Source: an uncultured Clostridia bacterium
GTDB lineage: Bacteria > Bacillota > Clostridia > TANB77 > CAG-465
Assembly: GCA_944388565.1 (NCBI GenBank)
Contig: CALXJG010000006.1
Location: 1 to 41,249, forward strand
DNA: 41,249 nt
Direction of reading: 5' to 3'
Shown: piece by piece, positions 2,491 to 11,395 of the stretch
Layout: each line of letters opens with the position of its first letter
Position numbering within the stretch: the first letter of the stretch is position 1
Position numbers and translations under genes: made by a program
Notes under the pieces: generated by a model
The model's database searches: none
What the model was told of the DNA's origin: nothing
What the model saw: the letters and a program-made list of their open reading frames with translations, nothing else

Positions 2491-2526
2491 AAAAAAAGTA
2501 ACGTAGAAAATTTCTACATTACTTTT
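2491..2526 (-). terminator. Intrinsic terminator at the end of the toxin/immunity operon
   Basis: Stem AAAAGTAACGTAGAAA / TTTCTACATTACTTTT with a T-run on the minus strand. Confidence 0.7.
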
Positions 2527-2950
2527 CTAATTCATCTATAGTTATATATCCTTTTTTCATAACACTTAAACAGTCTATATTTTCATCTTCAAATTCTTCA
2601 TCATTTATTCCTGTTATTATTATTCCAAGTTTTTCGGAAATAGCTAATTTCCAAGACTTAATTAATTTTATATCTTCATCATATTTTTTTATATGATTAT
2701 ATGCCTCTTTAAACTTTATATTATTTATATCAATATTCTCAAAGAATACTTTTACTTTTTCATTTGGGAAAAATTCTATACAAGCAAGTTTATCATCTTC
2801 AAATACAAGTGAAAAAAAGTTATACAAATCCTTATCTTCTCTTTTAAAATTCTTATCATATTTATTATCAAGCATATTTCTTAAATTTTCTCTTTTTTCT
2901 CCAAATAACAAAAAATTACATCCAACTAAAGGTTCTATTTTAAATTCCAT
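2519..2950 (-). CDS. Putative immunity protein
   Basis: 143 aa, acidic, 10 nt downstream of the toxin. The N-terminal FxIxPxxG...FGxxRE pattern is one I recognise from toxin-adjacent immunity families. Confidence 0.65.
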   Translation of the reverse strand: MEFKIEPLVGCNFLLFGEKRENLRNMLDNKYDKNFKREDKDLYNFFSLVFEDDKLACIEFFPNEKVKVFFENIDINNIKFKEAYNHIKKYDEDIKLIKSWKLAISEKLGIIITGINDEEFEDENIDCLSVMKKGYITIDELEK

Positions 2951-2960
2951 ATCTATCTCC

Positions 2961-3989
2961 CTAATCTATTTTTTCATTTACTTGTAGCATACCGATATAA
3001 TCTTCTACTTGTCTTAATTGTCTATCATATTTATTACCAAAATTAGTTCTAATATCTTTTATTTCATTAGCATAAGCTTTAGTATAATTTCCACTTTCTA
3101 CTAACTCTTTTTGCATTTTTTGGTATTTAAAAGAAGTTTTAGAACTCCCATAACTTGCTGTTTTTATATGGTCCTTTTTGGTAATTATAATAGCGGGACT
3201 TATATCTTTTATAACTGTTTTTCCATTCATATTTTTACTTATTCTTTTTTCTATAATCTGTGCTGAACTACGAGGTGGTACGTGATGTACTTCAAGTAAA
3301 TATCCAAGGCCTTTACTCTTAACCAAAGCTTTTAATTCATCATAAGAGCCACCAACTTTACTCATCATTTTTAATTGCTCCATAGCGTATTCATGAGTTT
3401 CTACAATATTGCTTGAAGTTGCCTCACTATTTAGCATATCTATAATCTCAGCATTAGACATAGAAGAAGTATTACTAATACTTGCTGTATTAGTATTTTC
3501 TTCAAAATACGATATATCCTCTTTTTTACCTGTAACATACTCTAGATATTTATTTTGTGCTTTTGCAAGTTTTAATAAATATTCTTTTCCATTTTTTATT
3601 TTTGTTAAACTAGTATTAATAGCCCTTTCAATATTATTATAATATTCTTTGTAAATAACATCATAATTTGAAAGTAGGTTATAGCATTCATCTATCTTTC
3701 TACTATACACATTAATTTTAGCATATACTTCTTCTGCATTTGGACTTTCTATATGTTTATTTCCATTTTCATCTTGTACTTCTACATAAATAATAGAGTT
3801 ATTAAGCTGTGCAATGTATATATTATATCTTTTAATTGCATTATATAAAGATGTTTTTATGCCATTAAATCTATTATGATAATATACTTTTCTTTCATTT
3901 AATAATAAATTAATATTATCTAGCATCTTTGCACTATTTGCTAATGCCTGAACACTTGAATTTGCTTTACTGCTATTTATGGCACTCAT
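2961..3989 (-). CDS. Putative polymorphic toxin: helical N-terminus, Ser/Asn/Thr linker, C-terminal nuclease-like domain
   Basis: C-terminal HHVPP...PAI...DH..TASYG...Q..L...G....A...I.DIR..FG.KYD pattern resembles Rhs-type His-metal nuclease toxin tips. Confidence 0.7.
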   Translation of the reverse strand: MSAINSSKANSSVQALANSAKMLDNINLLLNERKVYYHNRFNGIKTSLYNAIKRYNIYIAQLNNSIIYVEVQDENGNKHIESPNAEEVYAKINVYSRKIDECYNLLSNYDVIYKEYYNNIERAINTSLTKIKNGKEYLLKLAKAQNKYLEYVTGKKEDISYFEENTNTASISNTSSMSNAEIIDMLNSEATSSNIVETHEYAMEQLKMMSKVGGSYDELKALVKSKGLGYLLEVHHVPPRSSAQIIEKRISKNMNGKTVIKDISPAIIITKKDHIKTASYGSSKTSFKYQKMQKELVESGNYTKAYANEIKDIRTNFGNKYDRQLRQVEDYIGMLQVNEKID

Positions 3990-3994
3990 CTCCT

Positions 3995-9310: not shown

Positions 9311-9325
9311 ATACTCACCCTCTTT

Positions 9326-10420
9326 TTAAAAGCTAAATAATATTTCATCCTCTACATTTACTTTTTGTAATATCTTATCTATATCTTCTTTTATTTTTTC
9401 TTCTTCTTTTTTATCAACATTTATCTTTTCTTTTAAAATTTTTATTTTAGAATCTAGTTCCTCTTTAACCTTTGCTTTTTTACCAAAGCTTATTATACTT
9501 TTATTTCTATCTTTTTCAAGTTCTAACTTTTTTAAAGTATTTTCAAAAATTTGTATTTCACTTTTATATCTTTTAACCTTTGATTTTAATGCTCCTATTA
9601 TACTATATAACAAAGCGACATCAATATTTTTAGATGTTGGATATGCACCTTTTTTTAACTTTGATACATAAGATACAGGTAAACTATTTATAGTGTCATC
9701 TATATTTTTATTTACTACTTCTGTAGTTATAGAATTTCCTTCTCCCATAGAAGTAATTGGTAGTATTCCAAAATTCCAATTATTTTCTATCTGTCTTTTT
9801 GCACATTCATATACTATATTAAAAGTAGTAAGTGCTTTATTTGCAAGCAAAGTATAATTATTTGCTTTATCTTCTGGATTTATTGCACTGCTATCAGATT
9901 TTGAAAGTAATAATAAAAGAGACATACCTCTATTTGAAAGTTCATCTTCAAATATGTTAAATAATGGGTTAATTTTATCTGCTCCTGTTGCTATTTTTCT
10001 TTTATTTTCATCGTATTTACTAAGCATTACAGAGTCTACCATAACTAAAATAGCATCACTATTTCTAATATATTCTTTGGTTATTTCTACTTCTTCTTTA
10101 TTTTTGTTTTGTTTAAACATATCATCTAGTATTCCGCCTCTATAATCTATAAAGTCAAAATTACATACTATATCTGTATCTACTTTTAATTTTAGTTTAT
10201 ATATTGTTGTTCTATCCGTTCCAATTTCATTATTTACTGAATAATTTGAAAGTTCTCCTACAGAAAAGAATTCATTTTGTTCTTCTTTTCTTGGAAGTAT
10301 TGTTATTCCATTTGTAGAAGATATTATAAATTTTTGATTTAAACTAGAAATAAATGAACTCTTACCTGTTCCAGATATTCCTACCATCGCTATTTTTATA
10401 ATTTCATCTTTAATACTCAT
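9326..10420 (-). CDS. TRAFAC-class P-loop GTPase with C-terminal coiled coil
   Basis: G1 GISGTGKS, G2 GTDRT, G3 DYRGG, G4 SKSD. Confidence 0.8.
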   Translation of the reverse strand: MSIKDEIIKIAMVGISGTGKSSFISSLNQKFIISSTNGITILPRKEEQNEFFSVGELSNYSVNNEIGTDRTTIYKLKLKVDTDIVCNFDFIDYRGGILDDMFKQNKNKEEVEITKEYIRNSDAILVMVDSVMLSKYDENKRKIATGADKINPLFNIFEDELSNRGMSLLLLLSKSDSSAINPEDKANNYTLLANKALTTFNIVYECAKRQIENNWNFGILPITSMGEGNSITTEVVNKNIDDTINSLPVSYVSKLKKGAYPTSKNIDVALLYSIIGALKSKVKRYKSEIQIFENTLKKLELEKDRNKSIISFGKKAKVKEELDSKIKILKEKINVDKKEEEKIKEDIDKILQKVNVEDEILFSF

Positions 10421-10435
10421 ATAATTTTCTCCTTT

Positions 10436-11395
10436 TTACTTGTATTTCTTTTCTAACTTCATTAGTTCCATTTCTGCTACTAATACACCATTTTTTATAG
10501 CCATATTAAAATAATCTTTCGCCTTTTTTATATCTAGTCTCCCATATTTTTCATTTGAATATATCTTACCTAATTCAAGCATTGAATATGGATGTGATTT
10601 ATCTACACATTTTTCATATAAATTTATTGCTTTTTCTATATTATAATAGTCTTTATTATTTAAATATATTGTTGCAAGCTCGTACATTGAATTGATGTTT
10701 TCATTTTTTACATCATCTTCTAATAGTCTTACAACTTCTGTTGTTATTCCGTACTTTCCTTTTAGTGTATCTACATATTCATATAACGCACCATTAATAT
10801 TAGCATCTACAGCTTCCTTTAATAGTTTTTCAACATCTACTGTATCTTCTATCATTCCTCTTTTTAGTGCAACTGCATATTTAAAACATGCTTCTTTATT
10901 TGTGTCAATCACACCTTTTAATATACTGCAAGCATATTGTACATTGTACTTTGAACCTTGAGCTTTTTCACATAAGTCGTAATAGAATATAACATCTTTT
11001 ATATAACCTGCTTTTACTGGTCTATTAAAATATTTACATGCCTTTATGTAGTCTTGTTTTTTAAACTTTTCATTAAAATAGATATATCCTAATGCAATAT
11101 CTGACATTATAGTATTACCATCTTCTAGTAAATATTTCTCTGCCAAATCAATATCTTGTTTTACACCTATGCCAGTTAAATACATTATTCCAAGTCGCAT
11201 TTTATAGTTATATAAATAATTGAAACTAAAATCACATATACTTTTTAATCTTTCAATTTTTTCTTTTTCATCTGCTTTTTCATATAACAATTTATATATG
11301 ATTTCATCACATTCTAAAATATTATTTATATCTTTTTTTAGATTACTTATTTTTAAATCTACATTTTCAATTTCTTTTATAATATCTTTATTCAT
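10436..11395 (-). CDS. Sel1-like repeat (SLR/TPR) protein
   Basis: LGIMYLTGIGVKQDIDLAEKY, LGKIY...DIKKAKDYFNMAIKNG and related repeats; no signal peptide evident. Confidence 0.85.
   Translation of the reverse strand: MNKDIIKEIENVDLKISNLKKDINNILECDEIIYKLLYEKADEKEKIERLKSICDFSFNYLYNYKMRLGIMYLTGIGVKQDIDLAEKYLLEDGNTIMSDIALGYIYFNEKFKKQDYIKACKYFNRPVKAGYIKDVIFYYDLCEKAQGSKYNVQYACSILKGVIDTNKEACFKYAVALKRGMIEDTVDVEKLLKEAVDANINGALYEYVDTLKGKYGITTEVVRLLEDDVKNENINSMYELATIYLNNKDYYNIEKAINLYEKCVDKSHPYSMLELGKIYSNEKYGRLDIKKAKDYFNMAIKNGVLVAEMELMKLEKKYK

Follow-up and report, generated by a model that had tools for sequence, protein, structure and literature searches.

The window analysed here is a stretch of 41,249 nucleotides from an uncultured Clostridia bacterium (contig CALXJG010000006.1 of assembly GCA_944388565.1), and close to its start lies an operon of nine co-oriented open reading frames (ORFs) which spans positions 2519-11395 of the minus strand. 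In gene order these encode a Sel1-repeat protein, a GTPase, a GTPase partner, an EssC/EccC-like ATPase that lacks transmembrane (TM) segments, two proteins of the WXG100 superfamily, a third small helical protein, a toxin candidate and an immunity candidate. We infer that the operon is a self-contained, horizontally moving conflict cassette made of two modules. Module A, the putative switch, would consist of the Sel1 protein, a single TRAFAC GTPase distantly related to DO-GTPase2 and its longin/roadblock-like partner, and module B, for effector deployment, would consist of the ATPase, two or three proteins with a WxD motif, the toxin and the immunity candidate. The reading favoured here, held with about even confidence, is that of a GTPase-gated, ATPase-driven toxin-deployment system which has no dedicated membrane machine and most likely acts inside the cell. 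The motor-toxin core is already in print; the coupling to a GTPase, a longin-like protein and a Sel1 protein, the partner family and an allele block within the operon appear not to be.

All nine ORFs were recovered where a preliminary description of this DNA, made without database searches, had placed them as an operon with gaps of 5-26 nt; in gene order the gaps are 15, 15, 26, 17, 11, 15, 5 and 10 nt. The single promoter proposed in that description corresponds to a promoter-like site at 11427-11455 on the minus strand (TTGAAA, a 17 nt spacer and TATAAT; 11/12 consensus positions). In this AT-rich stretch sites of that kind are no more frequent than expected (99 observed, against 88 ± 8.5 from shuffled sequence), so that the site is weak evidence alone. 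It lies between the terminator of an upstream tRNA-Ser gene (11557-11527) and the Sel1 start codon, and because this tRNA-Ser(gct) gene, directly upstream of the operon at 11572-11661, has that terminator and a promoter of its own (11704-11677, 12/12), the operon begins where it had been placed. At the other end a terminator had been claimed at 2491-2526. The sequence from 2484 to 2530 forms a hairpin of 17 bp (-16.9 kcal/mol, z = -6.96, a stability that none of 200 shuffles reached) with a U run after it, which gives an intrinsic terminator at 2491-2528 on the minus strand; the general terminator scan did not pick up this hairpin, and dedicated folding of 2484-2530 did.

The motor of the proposed system is the ATPase of 1061 amino acids (aa) encoded at 4836-8021 on the minus strand. 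It matches FtsK_SpoIIIE in Pfam (PF01580, E = 3e-16), and its best NCBIfam match is EccCa (TIGR03924, E = 2e-19). When a profile built from the window protein and 13 relatives was compared with the PDB, the best matches were Thermomonospora EccC (4nh0, E = 1.6e-39), YukB (9qks, E = 1.6e-34) and EccC5 (E = 1e-31), whereas the same profile was weaker against the DNA translocase FtsK (6.5e-18) and HerA (1e-9), and TraB-type coupling proteins also fell below the ATPases of type VII secretion systems (T7SS). Judged by these profiles, EccC/EssC and not DNA-pumping FtsK is the nearer relative of the ATPase. A coiled coil at approximately residues 1-230 is followed by three FtsK-like domains, at about 235-500, in the centre and at about 815-1061. 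The N-terminal and C-terminal domains both align with the central one in hhalign (95.1%, E = 3e-8 and 96.3%, E = 1.6e-9, respectively), and Walker A (557-564) and Walker B (D662-E663) are found in the central domain only, the flanking copies being degenerate. The coiled coil was assigned from model matches, to the coiled-coil part of ZorA over residues 11-196 and to a matrilin coiled coil over residues 158-178. There was no FHA match in Pfam, which agrees with the earlier account of an FtsK-type ATPase without TM or FHA domains.

These comparisons bear on the improbable alternative that the operon encodes a DNA-directed restriction-like or DNA-transfer device, in which the FtsK-like ATPase would pump or track DNA and bring the nuclease to foreign DNA. 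The matches in PADLOC-DB 2.0, a check that had been proposed beforehand, are in keeping with it, as the ATPase domain matches SspH (E = 1.4e-21) and mad8 (E = 4.7e-15); this was a match to that domain only and not to the system as a whole, and none of the other eight operon proteins had a match better than E = 0.003. A canonical GAP1-N2/DO-GTPase2 locus in another Firmicute (L085) also carries a HerA/FtsK-like ATPase together with a WHH nuclease, and Bell et al. 2024 (PMC11090510) describe a module of this kind attached to the type IV restriction-like CoCoNuT systems. However, the ATPase profile fits T7SS ATPases far better than FtsK, TraB-type proteins or HerA, the WXG100-superfamily partners and a co-varying C-terminal domain of the ATPase point to protein substrates, and no DNA-binding domain was detected in a Pfam scan of the operon proteins. 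Searches of PHROGs returned matches to the ATPase domain and the Sel1 repeats only, and searches of phage records to the ATPase domain only.

The relatives of the ATPase fall into recognisable groups. At E <= 1e-10, 90 database proteins were retrieved, three of them orthologues. The next 36 relatives (P0109-P0144, mostly ~1160 aa) have one Walker A motif each, and in 35 of them the maximum 19-residue Kyte-Doolittle mean is below 1.6, whereas the 31 lowest-ranked (P0165-P0195) mostly exceed 2 and carry two or three Walker A motifs, as in canonical EssC/EccC. The ATPase is therefore assigned to a distinct TM-less clade. In a phylum sample of 400 other genomes most matches were to housekeeping FtsK or canonical EssC and the single closer relative was in a Firmicute genome (G455), and the only other FtsK domain in the organism's own genome belongs to an 826-aa housekeeping gene.

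The lack of membrane components extends to the operon and to the genome. Across all nine proteins the peak 19-residue Kyte-Doolittle mean, a crude measure and not a TM predictor, is 1.08, and no segment is fit for a membrane helix, as had been noted before. In the host genome (1.38 Mb in 80 contigs, 98.3% complete, ~24% G+C) the models PF10140, PF10661, TIGR03929 and PF08817, which make up the EssB/YukC, EssA, EsaA/YueB and EsaB/YukD set, had no match, and the Bacillus subtilis control was found each time; the absence of EssA, EssB, EsaA and EsaB that was reported for the operon thus holds across the genome, and no canonical T7SS of the Firmicute type (T7SSb) was found elsewhere in it. Nor was there a WXG100 or LXG match in the genome. 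The genome is small, so gene loss is common, and this would suit the idea of a decaying T7SSb remnant from which the membrane genes have been lost. This explanation is nevertheless highly improbable: none of the nine frames is broken in the window, in the three strain variants or in the second species, the ATPase belongs to the TM-less clade (one Walker A, ~1160 residues) that is found in many samples, and the architecture is treated as a distinct type in Bell et al. 2024 (PMC11090510).

Directly after the ATPase gene are the genes for Wxg1 (94 aa, 4534-4818) and Wxg2 (90 aa, 4250-4522), both on the minus strand. Pfam WXG100 matches Wxg1 with E = 0.034 and Wxg2 with E = 4.4e-5 at 24.1 bits, which is below the cut-off of 27.3. 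A profile (A6) was built from Wxg1, Wxg2, their orthologues and two proteins of the locus L061 in genome G455, and its full-length PDB matches were Helicobacter pylori HP0062 (3fx7, E = 1.9e-8; 2gts, E = 1.1e-7), SAG1039 (5e-6) and EsxB/EsxA (1e-4 to 5e-4); the rest of the list was coiled-coil noise (coronavirus spike HR1 and designed bundles). At the hairpin position a W-x-D motif takes the place of WxG and is invariant in all 10 rows of the alignment. On this profile evidence Wxg1 and Wxg2 are members of the WXG100 superfamily, with HP0062 as their closest solved relative, which confirms the WxD/WXG100-like nature first suggested for them. For the third small protein (79 aa, TTG start, 3995-4234 on the minus strand) the assignment is only tentative. 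It has a W-x-D near its N-terminus and no Pfam match, and hhalign relates it weakly to the WxD profile (57% probability, E = 1e-4, 56 columns).

Comparison of strain variants revealed a recombined allele block at window positions 4250-5240, in which the C-terminus of the ATPase, Wxg1 and Wxg2 have been swapped as one unit within the species. One variant (L009) shares ~99% nucleotide identity with the window over most of the operon; this falls to 93% over the last 160 ATPase codons, 87% in Wxg1 and 73% in Wxg2, and is back at 99% in the toxin gene. The second (L010) carries the same alternative block, being 94-99% identical to L009 there, and shares 92-97% identity with the window over the rest of the operon; its Wxg2 is likewise at 73%, and Wxg2 is the most variable gene within the species. 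In the ATPase itself, 20 of the 25 amino-acid differences between the window and L009 lie at residues 928-1051. The degenerate C-terminal domain therefore travels with Wxg1 and Wxg2, as expected if that domain recognises these two proteins. Co-swapping of an ATPase C-terminus and WXG genes recalls the essC variant modules of Staphylococcus aureus, which belong to a secretion system. The toxin and immunity genes are nearly identical across the allele variants. This is unusual for polymorphic-toxin loci, in which the toxin tip and the immunity gene are normally the variable parts.

The last two genes plausibly form a toxin and immunity pair. The toxin candidate (342 aa, 2961-3989, minus strand) consists of a helical hairpin, a linker and a C-terminal domain. 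In the AlphaFold2 (AF2) model, which has a mean predicted local distance difference test (pLDDT) value of 60, helices at 3-64 and 85-153 form a long hairpin (3-153) followed by a disordered linker, and the C-terminal domain is poorly modelled, with a low-confidence β-β-α element at 230-278. The motifs LLEVHH...ITKKDH are invariant between two species whose toxins are 43-46% identical, and they fall on this element, a placement in the model which, as a lead, is what an HNH/EndoVII core would give. Language-model (Atlas) neighbours of the toxin are Tox-SHH, Tox-GHH2, AHH and Pyocin_S clusters (0.92-0.94), and its HH motif aligns with the WHH motif region of a Helicobacter plasmid nuclease (a single weak BLASTP alignment, E = 0.005). 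Similarities of this kind make a nuclease the lead for the toxin, so that of the nuclease toxin and immunity protein described at first, the pair has stood as plausible and the nuclease as a lead. A single-sequence PDB search with the toxin gave nothing useful, LXG (PF04740) had no match in the toxin or in the genome, and the N-terminus of the toxin showed no similarity (3%) to small protein 3. The immunity or antitoxin candidate (143 aa, 2519-2950, minus strand) follows directly, after a gap of 10 nt, and is the best-conserved gene between the two species (58%). It has no Pfam match, and of the four Atlas neighbour rows shown one, at 0.95, was a Knr4/Smi1-like cluster, no more than a lead.

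A plasmid of Helicobacter sp. NHP19-012 provides a similar arrangement, with a 340-aa helical WHH (HNH/EndoVII) nuclease, a 140-aa SUKH/SMI1_KNR4 protein and an 823-aa FtsK-like ATPase. In length and in logic its toxin and immunity genes agree with the pair in the window, and HP0062, the best full-length solved match of the WxD proteins, is also from Helicobacter. It differs in that the host is a diderm, in that no GTPase, longin-like or Sel1 protein is annotated in the 18.7-kb stretch viewed, and in that its toxin and immunity proteins have no significant similarity to those of the window (E = 0.005 and 0.026 in single pairwise comparisons). The Firmicute T7SSb resembles the operon in several respects; the central domain of the ATPase is homologous to EssC/YukB, WXG100-superfamily partners are adjacent, an immunity gene comes after that of a toxin whose N-terminus is helical, and a variable ATPase C-terminus is tied to the genes downstream. 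In contrast to T7SSb, the ATPase in the window has no FHA or TM part and one active domain, and the toxin has no Pfam LXG match.

These likenesses are what favour a possible, though rather unlikely, alternative, namely minimal type VII-like export for interbacterial competition. Here the soluble ATPase would dock on a conduit encoded elsewhere and export the WXG-like proteins and the toxin, the immunity gene would protect kin, and the GTPase, the longin-like protein and the Sel1 protein would gate the machine or set its position. The core has a T7SS-like logic, in that an EssC-like ATPase is combined with WXG100-superfamily proteins, an immunity gene and a toxin that is helical at its N-terminus. 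The co-swapped ATPase C-terminus and WXG genes, with their parallel in the S. aureus secretion system, also speak for export, the SUKH immunity protein and WHH toxin of the Helicobacter plasmid are typical of toxins delivered between cells, and Bell et al. (PMC11090510) consider secretion of the WXG100 proteins likely. Export is harder to reconcile with the lack of a TM-like segment in any of the nine proteins and with the negative genome searches for EssA, EssB, EsaA and YukD. The module also occurs in diderms (Helicobacter and Caballeronia), where a Firmicute-type conduit cannot be assumed, and elsewhere it sits in conflict systems of an intracellular type (CARF, TerY-P and CoCoNuT).

In module A, the first gene (10436-11395, minus strand) encodes a 319-aa Sel1-repeat (SLR/TPR-like) protein, a candidate scaffold or sensor, which matches Pfam Sel1 (PF08238) with E = 4.2e-15 and 56 bits against a cut-off of 30.7. 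The second (9326-10420, minus strand) encodes a 364-aa TRAFAC-type GTPase that passes the cut-off of Pfam DO-GTPase2 (PF19993; 31.2 bits against 27, model positions 3-193 of 226) and also matches MMR_HSR1 (E = 2.5e-6). The DO-GTPase2 score is weak, since a canonical member reaches 130 bits. Across five GTPase relatives the invariant residues are G14/G17/G19/K20 of the P-loop, T68/T71/T72, D92-Y-R-G-G96 of the DxxG motif and K174/D176 of the xKxD motif; as judged from this alignment the G motifs are intact, including the switch-I threonines. The GTPase had been described as a DYRGG-type protein reminiscent of GTPase-centred conflict systems, and both the motif and the Pfam assignment are in line with this. 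Its C-terminal tail, a coiled coil at ~273-364, matches coiled-coil models and designed helical bundles. A single-sequence PDB search gave nothing useful, and with a profile there was a P-loop match to YcjX only (E = 0.09).

Like the DO-GTPase/GAP1 systems, the operon has a GTPase over the Pfam threshold, then a conserved partner and then effector-like genes. It differs from them in having a single GTPase with no zinc ribbon (the P-loop starts at residue 14 and there is no Cys-rich N-terminus), a partner which is not GAP1 by sequence and no FNIII/GASH match. A genuine DO-GTPase system was seen in genome G232 (L085, contig 137, 383-12446), where genes for a GAP1-N2/GAP1-M protein, a 1045-aa HerA/FtsK-like ATPase, a transglutaminase-like protein and DO-GTPase2 are followed by those for a 260-aa protein, a calcineurin-like phosphoesterase and a WHH/colicin-DNase protein. 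In this gene set, too, an FtsK-superfamily ATPase and an HNH-type nuclease are found together with DO-GTPase.

The third gene (8048-9310, minus strand) encodes the GTPase partner, a 420-aa protein with a longin/roadblock-like N-terminal domain (~1-150) and a variable C-terminal part. It has no Pfam match and no GAP1 match at E <= 0.1, and with 95 representatives at E <= 1e-3 among 1.84 billion it belongs to a rare new family. An alignment (A3) was made of the window protein and 80 of the 95 matches; the near-identical P0001 was left out, as were 14 short or partial rows (P0017, P0024, P0026, P0032, P0034, P0038, P0040, P0056, P0065, P0069, P0070, P0071, P0091 and P0094). The conserved core of the family is the first 100-150 residues. 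Over residues 1-110 the AF2 model has a pLDDT of 76-89 and the order β-β-α-β-β-β-α (strands 2-9 and 17-20, helix 27-56, strands 58-62, 66-78 and 84-94, helix 95-111).

In Foldseek the top match of this model was TagF (E = 4e-4), followed by more TagF chains and GATOR1. With VIA-align the best matches were TagF (Z 6.8), GATOR1 (Z 6.6), the SEA complex (Z 6.2), a Lokiarchaeal Roadblock-Longin protein (Z 6.0), the C-terminal domain of a Rag-like GTPase (Z 5.9) and the Lst4 longin domain (Z 5.5), and the list continued with DENND10, FLCN, TRAPP, C9orf72-SMCR8, Mon1-Ccz1 and MglB/MglC. Two independent aligners thus gave matches that are almost wholly longin/roadblock GTPase regulators, and in the model the fold of the N-terminal domain is longin/roadblock-like; this is a likeness of fold, with homology not proven. 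The partner is like such regulators (TagF of type VI secretion, GATOR1 Nprl2/3, Lst4/FLCN, Mon1-Ccz1 and MglB/MglC) in the order of fold elements and the association with a small GTPase, and unlike them in having no detectable sequence similarity to any and Z at most 6.8. The partner gene directly follows the GTPase gene in all loci examined, and the partner most likely regulates the GTPase cycle. Prediction of a complex between the GTPase G-domain (1-275) and the partner N-domain (1-200) gave a score of 0.01, which speaks neither for nor against binding.

The GAP1-N-like identity first given to the partner was not upheld. None of the 81 family members (the protein and its 80 relatives) matched the GAP1 Pfam models at E <= 0.01, and hhalign gave 0.1% against genuine GAP1-N2/M and 0.3% against GAP1-N1 proteins taken from other Firmicutes, these being single-sequence templates of limited sensitivity.

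The same nine genes occur in the same order in a second species of the genus (G033; L005/L006), so the arrangement is not due to chance. Amino-acid identities in gene order are 41, 55, 44 (first 98 residues only), 41, 49, 45, 49, 43 and 58%, and the flanking genes differ, being aminoacyl-tRNA synthetases, DUF2207 and an AAA_14 ATPase. The full cassette was also found in three metagenome contigs of the same species at 94-99% identity (L009-L011). Its distribution is patchy; with the GTPase profile it was found in two of 50 genus genomes, the organism's own included, and a search of 60 relatives with the partner protein found it in one of 36 genus members (G033) and in none of 24 from other families of the order. 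In the class, one weak match to the partner family (E = 1e-4) was found among 398 other scored genomes. The co-occurrence of the GTPase, partner and Sel1 genes with the FtsK-WxD module, on which the earlier interpretation had been made to depend, was therefore seen in another genome. Neither module was found alone in the other 48 genus genomes (GTPase profile) nor in the other 35 of the 36 sampled (partner protein).

The pair of GTPase and partner occurs without the rest of the cassette in two Coprococcus metagenome-assembled genomes and 19 gut-metagenome contigs (L007, L008 and L012-L030). Nine of these contigs are shorter than 5 kb and so show few neighbours, and five short contigs hold the pair only in part. 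On contigs of sufficient length the order is kinase, vWA, 180-aa protein, GTPase, partner and 256-aa protein, and no FtsK or WXG genes were found in the 21 loci. As it recurs beside kinase and vWA genes elsewhere, the pair behaves as a portable switch. The operon of this arrangement, as in L007 (6159-13717), consists of genes for a Ser/Thr kinase, vWA, a 180-aa protein, (a 185-aa protein,) the GTPase, the partner and 256-aa and 309-aa proteins without a Pfam family. Possibly it represents a separate GTPase-longin conflict system in which the kinase and vWA genes are a TerY-P-like part.

Module B likewise occurs in other settings. On a Caballeronia plasmid, which was retrieved with the window ATPase as query, the genes are vWA, WXG100, three hypothetical genes, FtsK, CARF, vWA, PP2C, kinase and AAA; on the Helicobacter plasmid they are a WXG-like gene, the WHH nuclease, the SUKH immunity protein, a small protein and FtsK; and in G455, a Firmicute of higher G+C content, a kinase, an 842-aa ATPase and WxD proteins are accompanied by a different helical protein. 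The G455 locus (L061, contig 34, 1142-13367) encodes a kinase, paralogous 309-aa and 351-aa proteins, the FtsK-like ATPase, which has no coiled coil there, two WxD WXG100-like proteins (Pfam E = 2e-5 and 6e-5) and a 300-aa helical protein, the C-terminus of which we take to recall a ParB-like motif. After these come a third small WxD protein, a coiled-coil protein and a ClpB-like AAA protein. Since both modules are found with other partners, both are portable, and module B resembles a polymorphic-toxin cassette.

Such separate occurrences raise the alternative of two unrelated neighbouring systems, Sel1-GTPase-longin and ATPase-WXG-toxin-immunity, which would be adjacent by chance or through a shared island. 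This is considered quite unlikely. The GTPase pair is indeed with kinase and vWA genes in the 21 Coprococcus-type loci, and the ATPase/WXG module is without such a GTPase in G455 and on the two plasmids. However, the gap between the two modules is 26 nt with no terminator in it, the order and the tight spacing are kept at 41-58% identity in G033 with other flanks, and neither module was found alone in the remaining sampled genomes of the genus.

Module B closely resembles a unit described computationally by Bell et al. 2024 (PMC11090510) as a TM-less, coiled-coil EssC-like ATPase in which only the central of three domains is catalytic, beside two WXG100 proteins (one without WxG), a fusion of coiled coil and nuclease, and a small protein encoded downstream. 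The same article states that the absence of TM domains makes a mechanism other than that of EssC likely, credits Anantharaman et al. 2012 with the view of the operon as a mobile, stand-alone unit, and reports the module joined to type IV restriction-like CoCoNuT (Type III-A extensions) and TerY-P operons. In PMC4978471, WxG, FtsK and an LHH nuclease are listed with TerY-P triads, HP0062/HP0066 are given as widespread H. pylori paralogues, and the Helicobacter WXG100/FtsK cluster goes under the name 'WXG100 secretion system'. The window operon shares with the module of Bell et al. an N-terminal ATPase coiled coil of ~230 residues in place of FHA and TM parts, three FtsK-like domains with Walker motifs in the central one only, and adjacent WXG100-like genes without the classic WxG; its toxin has long N-terminal helices (modelled), a nuclease-type C-terminus as a lead, and a small protein after it.

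The differences are as follows. In the window, Sel1, GTPase and longin-like proteins are encoded ahead of the ATPase, and the flanking vWA, TerY-P triad, CARF and McrBC/CoCoNuT core are absent; the operon has no Pfam match to vWA, PP2C, kinase, CARF or McrB (the MgtA-like flank being left out). The ATPase gene opens the module here and closes it in the plasmid examples, the lead for the nuclease is HNH/EndoVII-like instead of a D-ExK restriction fold, and there are three small helical proteins instead of two. For the GTPase side, the main text of Kaur et al. 2020 (PMC7159879) on DO-GTPase/GAP1 systems contains none of the terms 'T7SS', 'type VII', 'ESAT' and 'WXG', and according to a 2026 preprint, which draws in part on unpublished observations, GTPases of putative anti-selfish-element systems often have profilin-longin-like domains beside them. 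No link of such a GTPase pair to a WXG100/FtsK module was found in the literature searched, which did not cover supplementary tables. The suggestion that the system might be undescribed thus stands for the GTPase coupling within that literature and not for the core, which is described by Bell et al.

For the favoured reading a sequence of events can be proposed. In the resting cell the toxin would be kept inactive by the immunity protein and bundled with the WXG-like proteins. A trigger, most likely a phage or other invader, would be sensed by the switch of Sel1 protein, longin-like protein and GTPase, and this would activate the ATPase hexamer or assemble it via coiled-coil contacts. The degenerate C-terminal domain of the ATPase would recognise the helical bundle of WXG proteins and toxin, and an ATP-driven pull would separate the toxin from the immunity protein. 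The freed nuclease would then act in the cell, leading to abortive infection, or go to an exit route. Overall this would be the substrate-recognition and threading half of type VII secretion, minus the membrane half. In its most specific form, in which the longin-GTPase switch senses infection and the EssC-like hexamer threads the WXG-bundled nuclease away from its immunity protein and so kills the infected cell, the proposal is tentative and distinctly short of even confidence.

Several observations weigh against this reading. The steps of the mechanism are all inferred, and the combination of modules A and B was seen in one genus only, so that their functional coupling rests on two species and their strain variants. 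No GTPase relatives were found on viral contigs, PADLOC-DB holds no model for the system of the whole operon, and no obvious defence island surrounds it. On the effector side, the C-terminal 139 residues of the toxin had no Pfam match even at E = 10, this domain was modelled at low confidence, and Foldseek with the toxin model returned generic long-helix and coiled-coil matches only, so that the fold search was uninformative. The role of the immunity candidate rests on its position and the language-model lead, and an immunity gene is equally compatible with a toxin exported against kin and with one that stays inside the cell; Bell et al. 2024 (PMC11090510) also lean to secretion of at least the WXG100 proteins. 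The Z-scores for the longin fold of the partner (5-6.8) are under the aligner's own safe level.

The flanks of the operon comprise the tRNA-Ser gene, an MgtA-type P-type ATPase, a fragment of a ZIP transporter and a serine recombinase. A prophage or conjugative-element gene set was considered and rejected, as the only nearby mobile genes are those of the split serine recombinase, which is separated from the terminator, and so from the operon, by the truncated ZIP gene. This large recombinase is split into two ORFs, with the Resolvase domain at 982-1653 and the Recombinase and zinc-ribbon domains at 20-874, and the ZIP zinc-transporter ORF next to it is cut to 154 aa (1959-2423); together (window 20-2423) they look like a mobile element with a broken recombinase gene that was inserted into the ZIP gene and extends past the start of the contig. 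The boundaries of the insertion site of the cassette were not definable, as synteny upstream of the MgtA orthologue was not kept in the two genus members compared. In G033 this orthologue of the MgtA-type ATPase (81% identical; L070, contig 37, 9432-12047) has one in-frame TAA and may be a pseudogene or reflect an assembly error.

Further along the window there is a second tRNA-Ser gene, tRNA-Ser(tga), at 15476-15564. Near 24 kb the GC skew changes sign and so does gene orientation, with minus-strand genes to the left and plus-strand genes to the right (window ~24000-31000), which suggests the region of the chromosomal replication origin. Among public sequencing runs, four chicken-gut metatranscriptomes from one study hold 9-29% of the sampled words and four further runs of unstated kind hold 64-79%, and in both cases this is evidence of neither transcription nor habitat.

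A TM-less module of an EssC-like ATPase, WXG100 proteins and a nuclease is present in bacteria as distant as Clostridia, Helicobacter and Caballeronia and has been remarked on in print at least twice, and no experimental test of its function was found in the literature searched. The operon described here is compact, as it encodes nine soluble proteins and is not surrounded by large restriction or TerY-P machinery, and being self-contained it offers a practical test bed for whether the module secretes its substrates or acts inside the cell. The allele block provides a concrete specificity pair in the ATPase C-terminus and the two WXG genes, and the partner family adds a case to the emerging idea that longin-GTPase pairs act as switches in prokaryotic conflict systems. 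If toxin release does follow the sensing of infection, the operon would represent a new class of abortive infection and a prokaryotic immune use of the longin-GTPase pairing that is known from the eukaryotic Rag/GATOR and Rab regulators.

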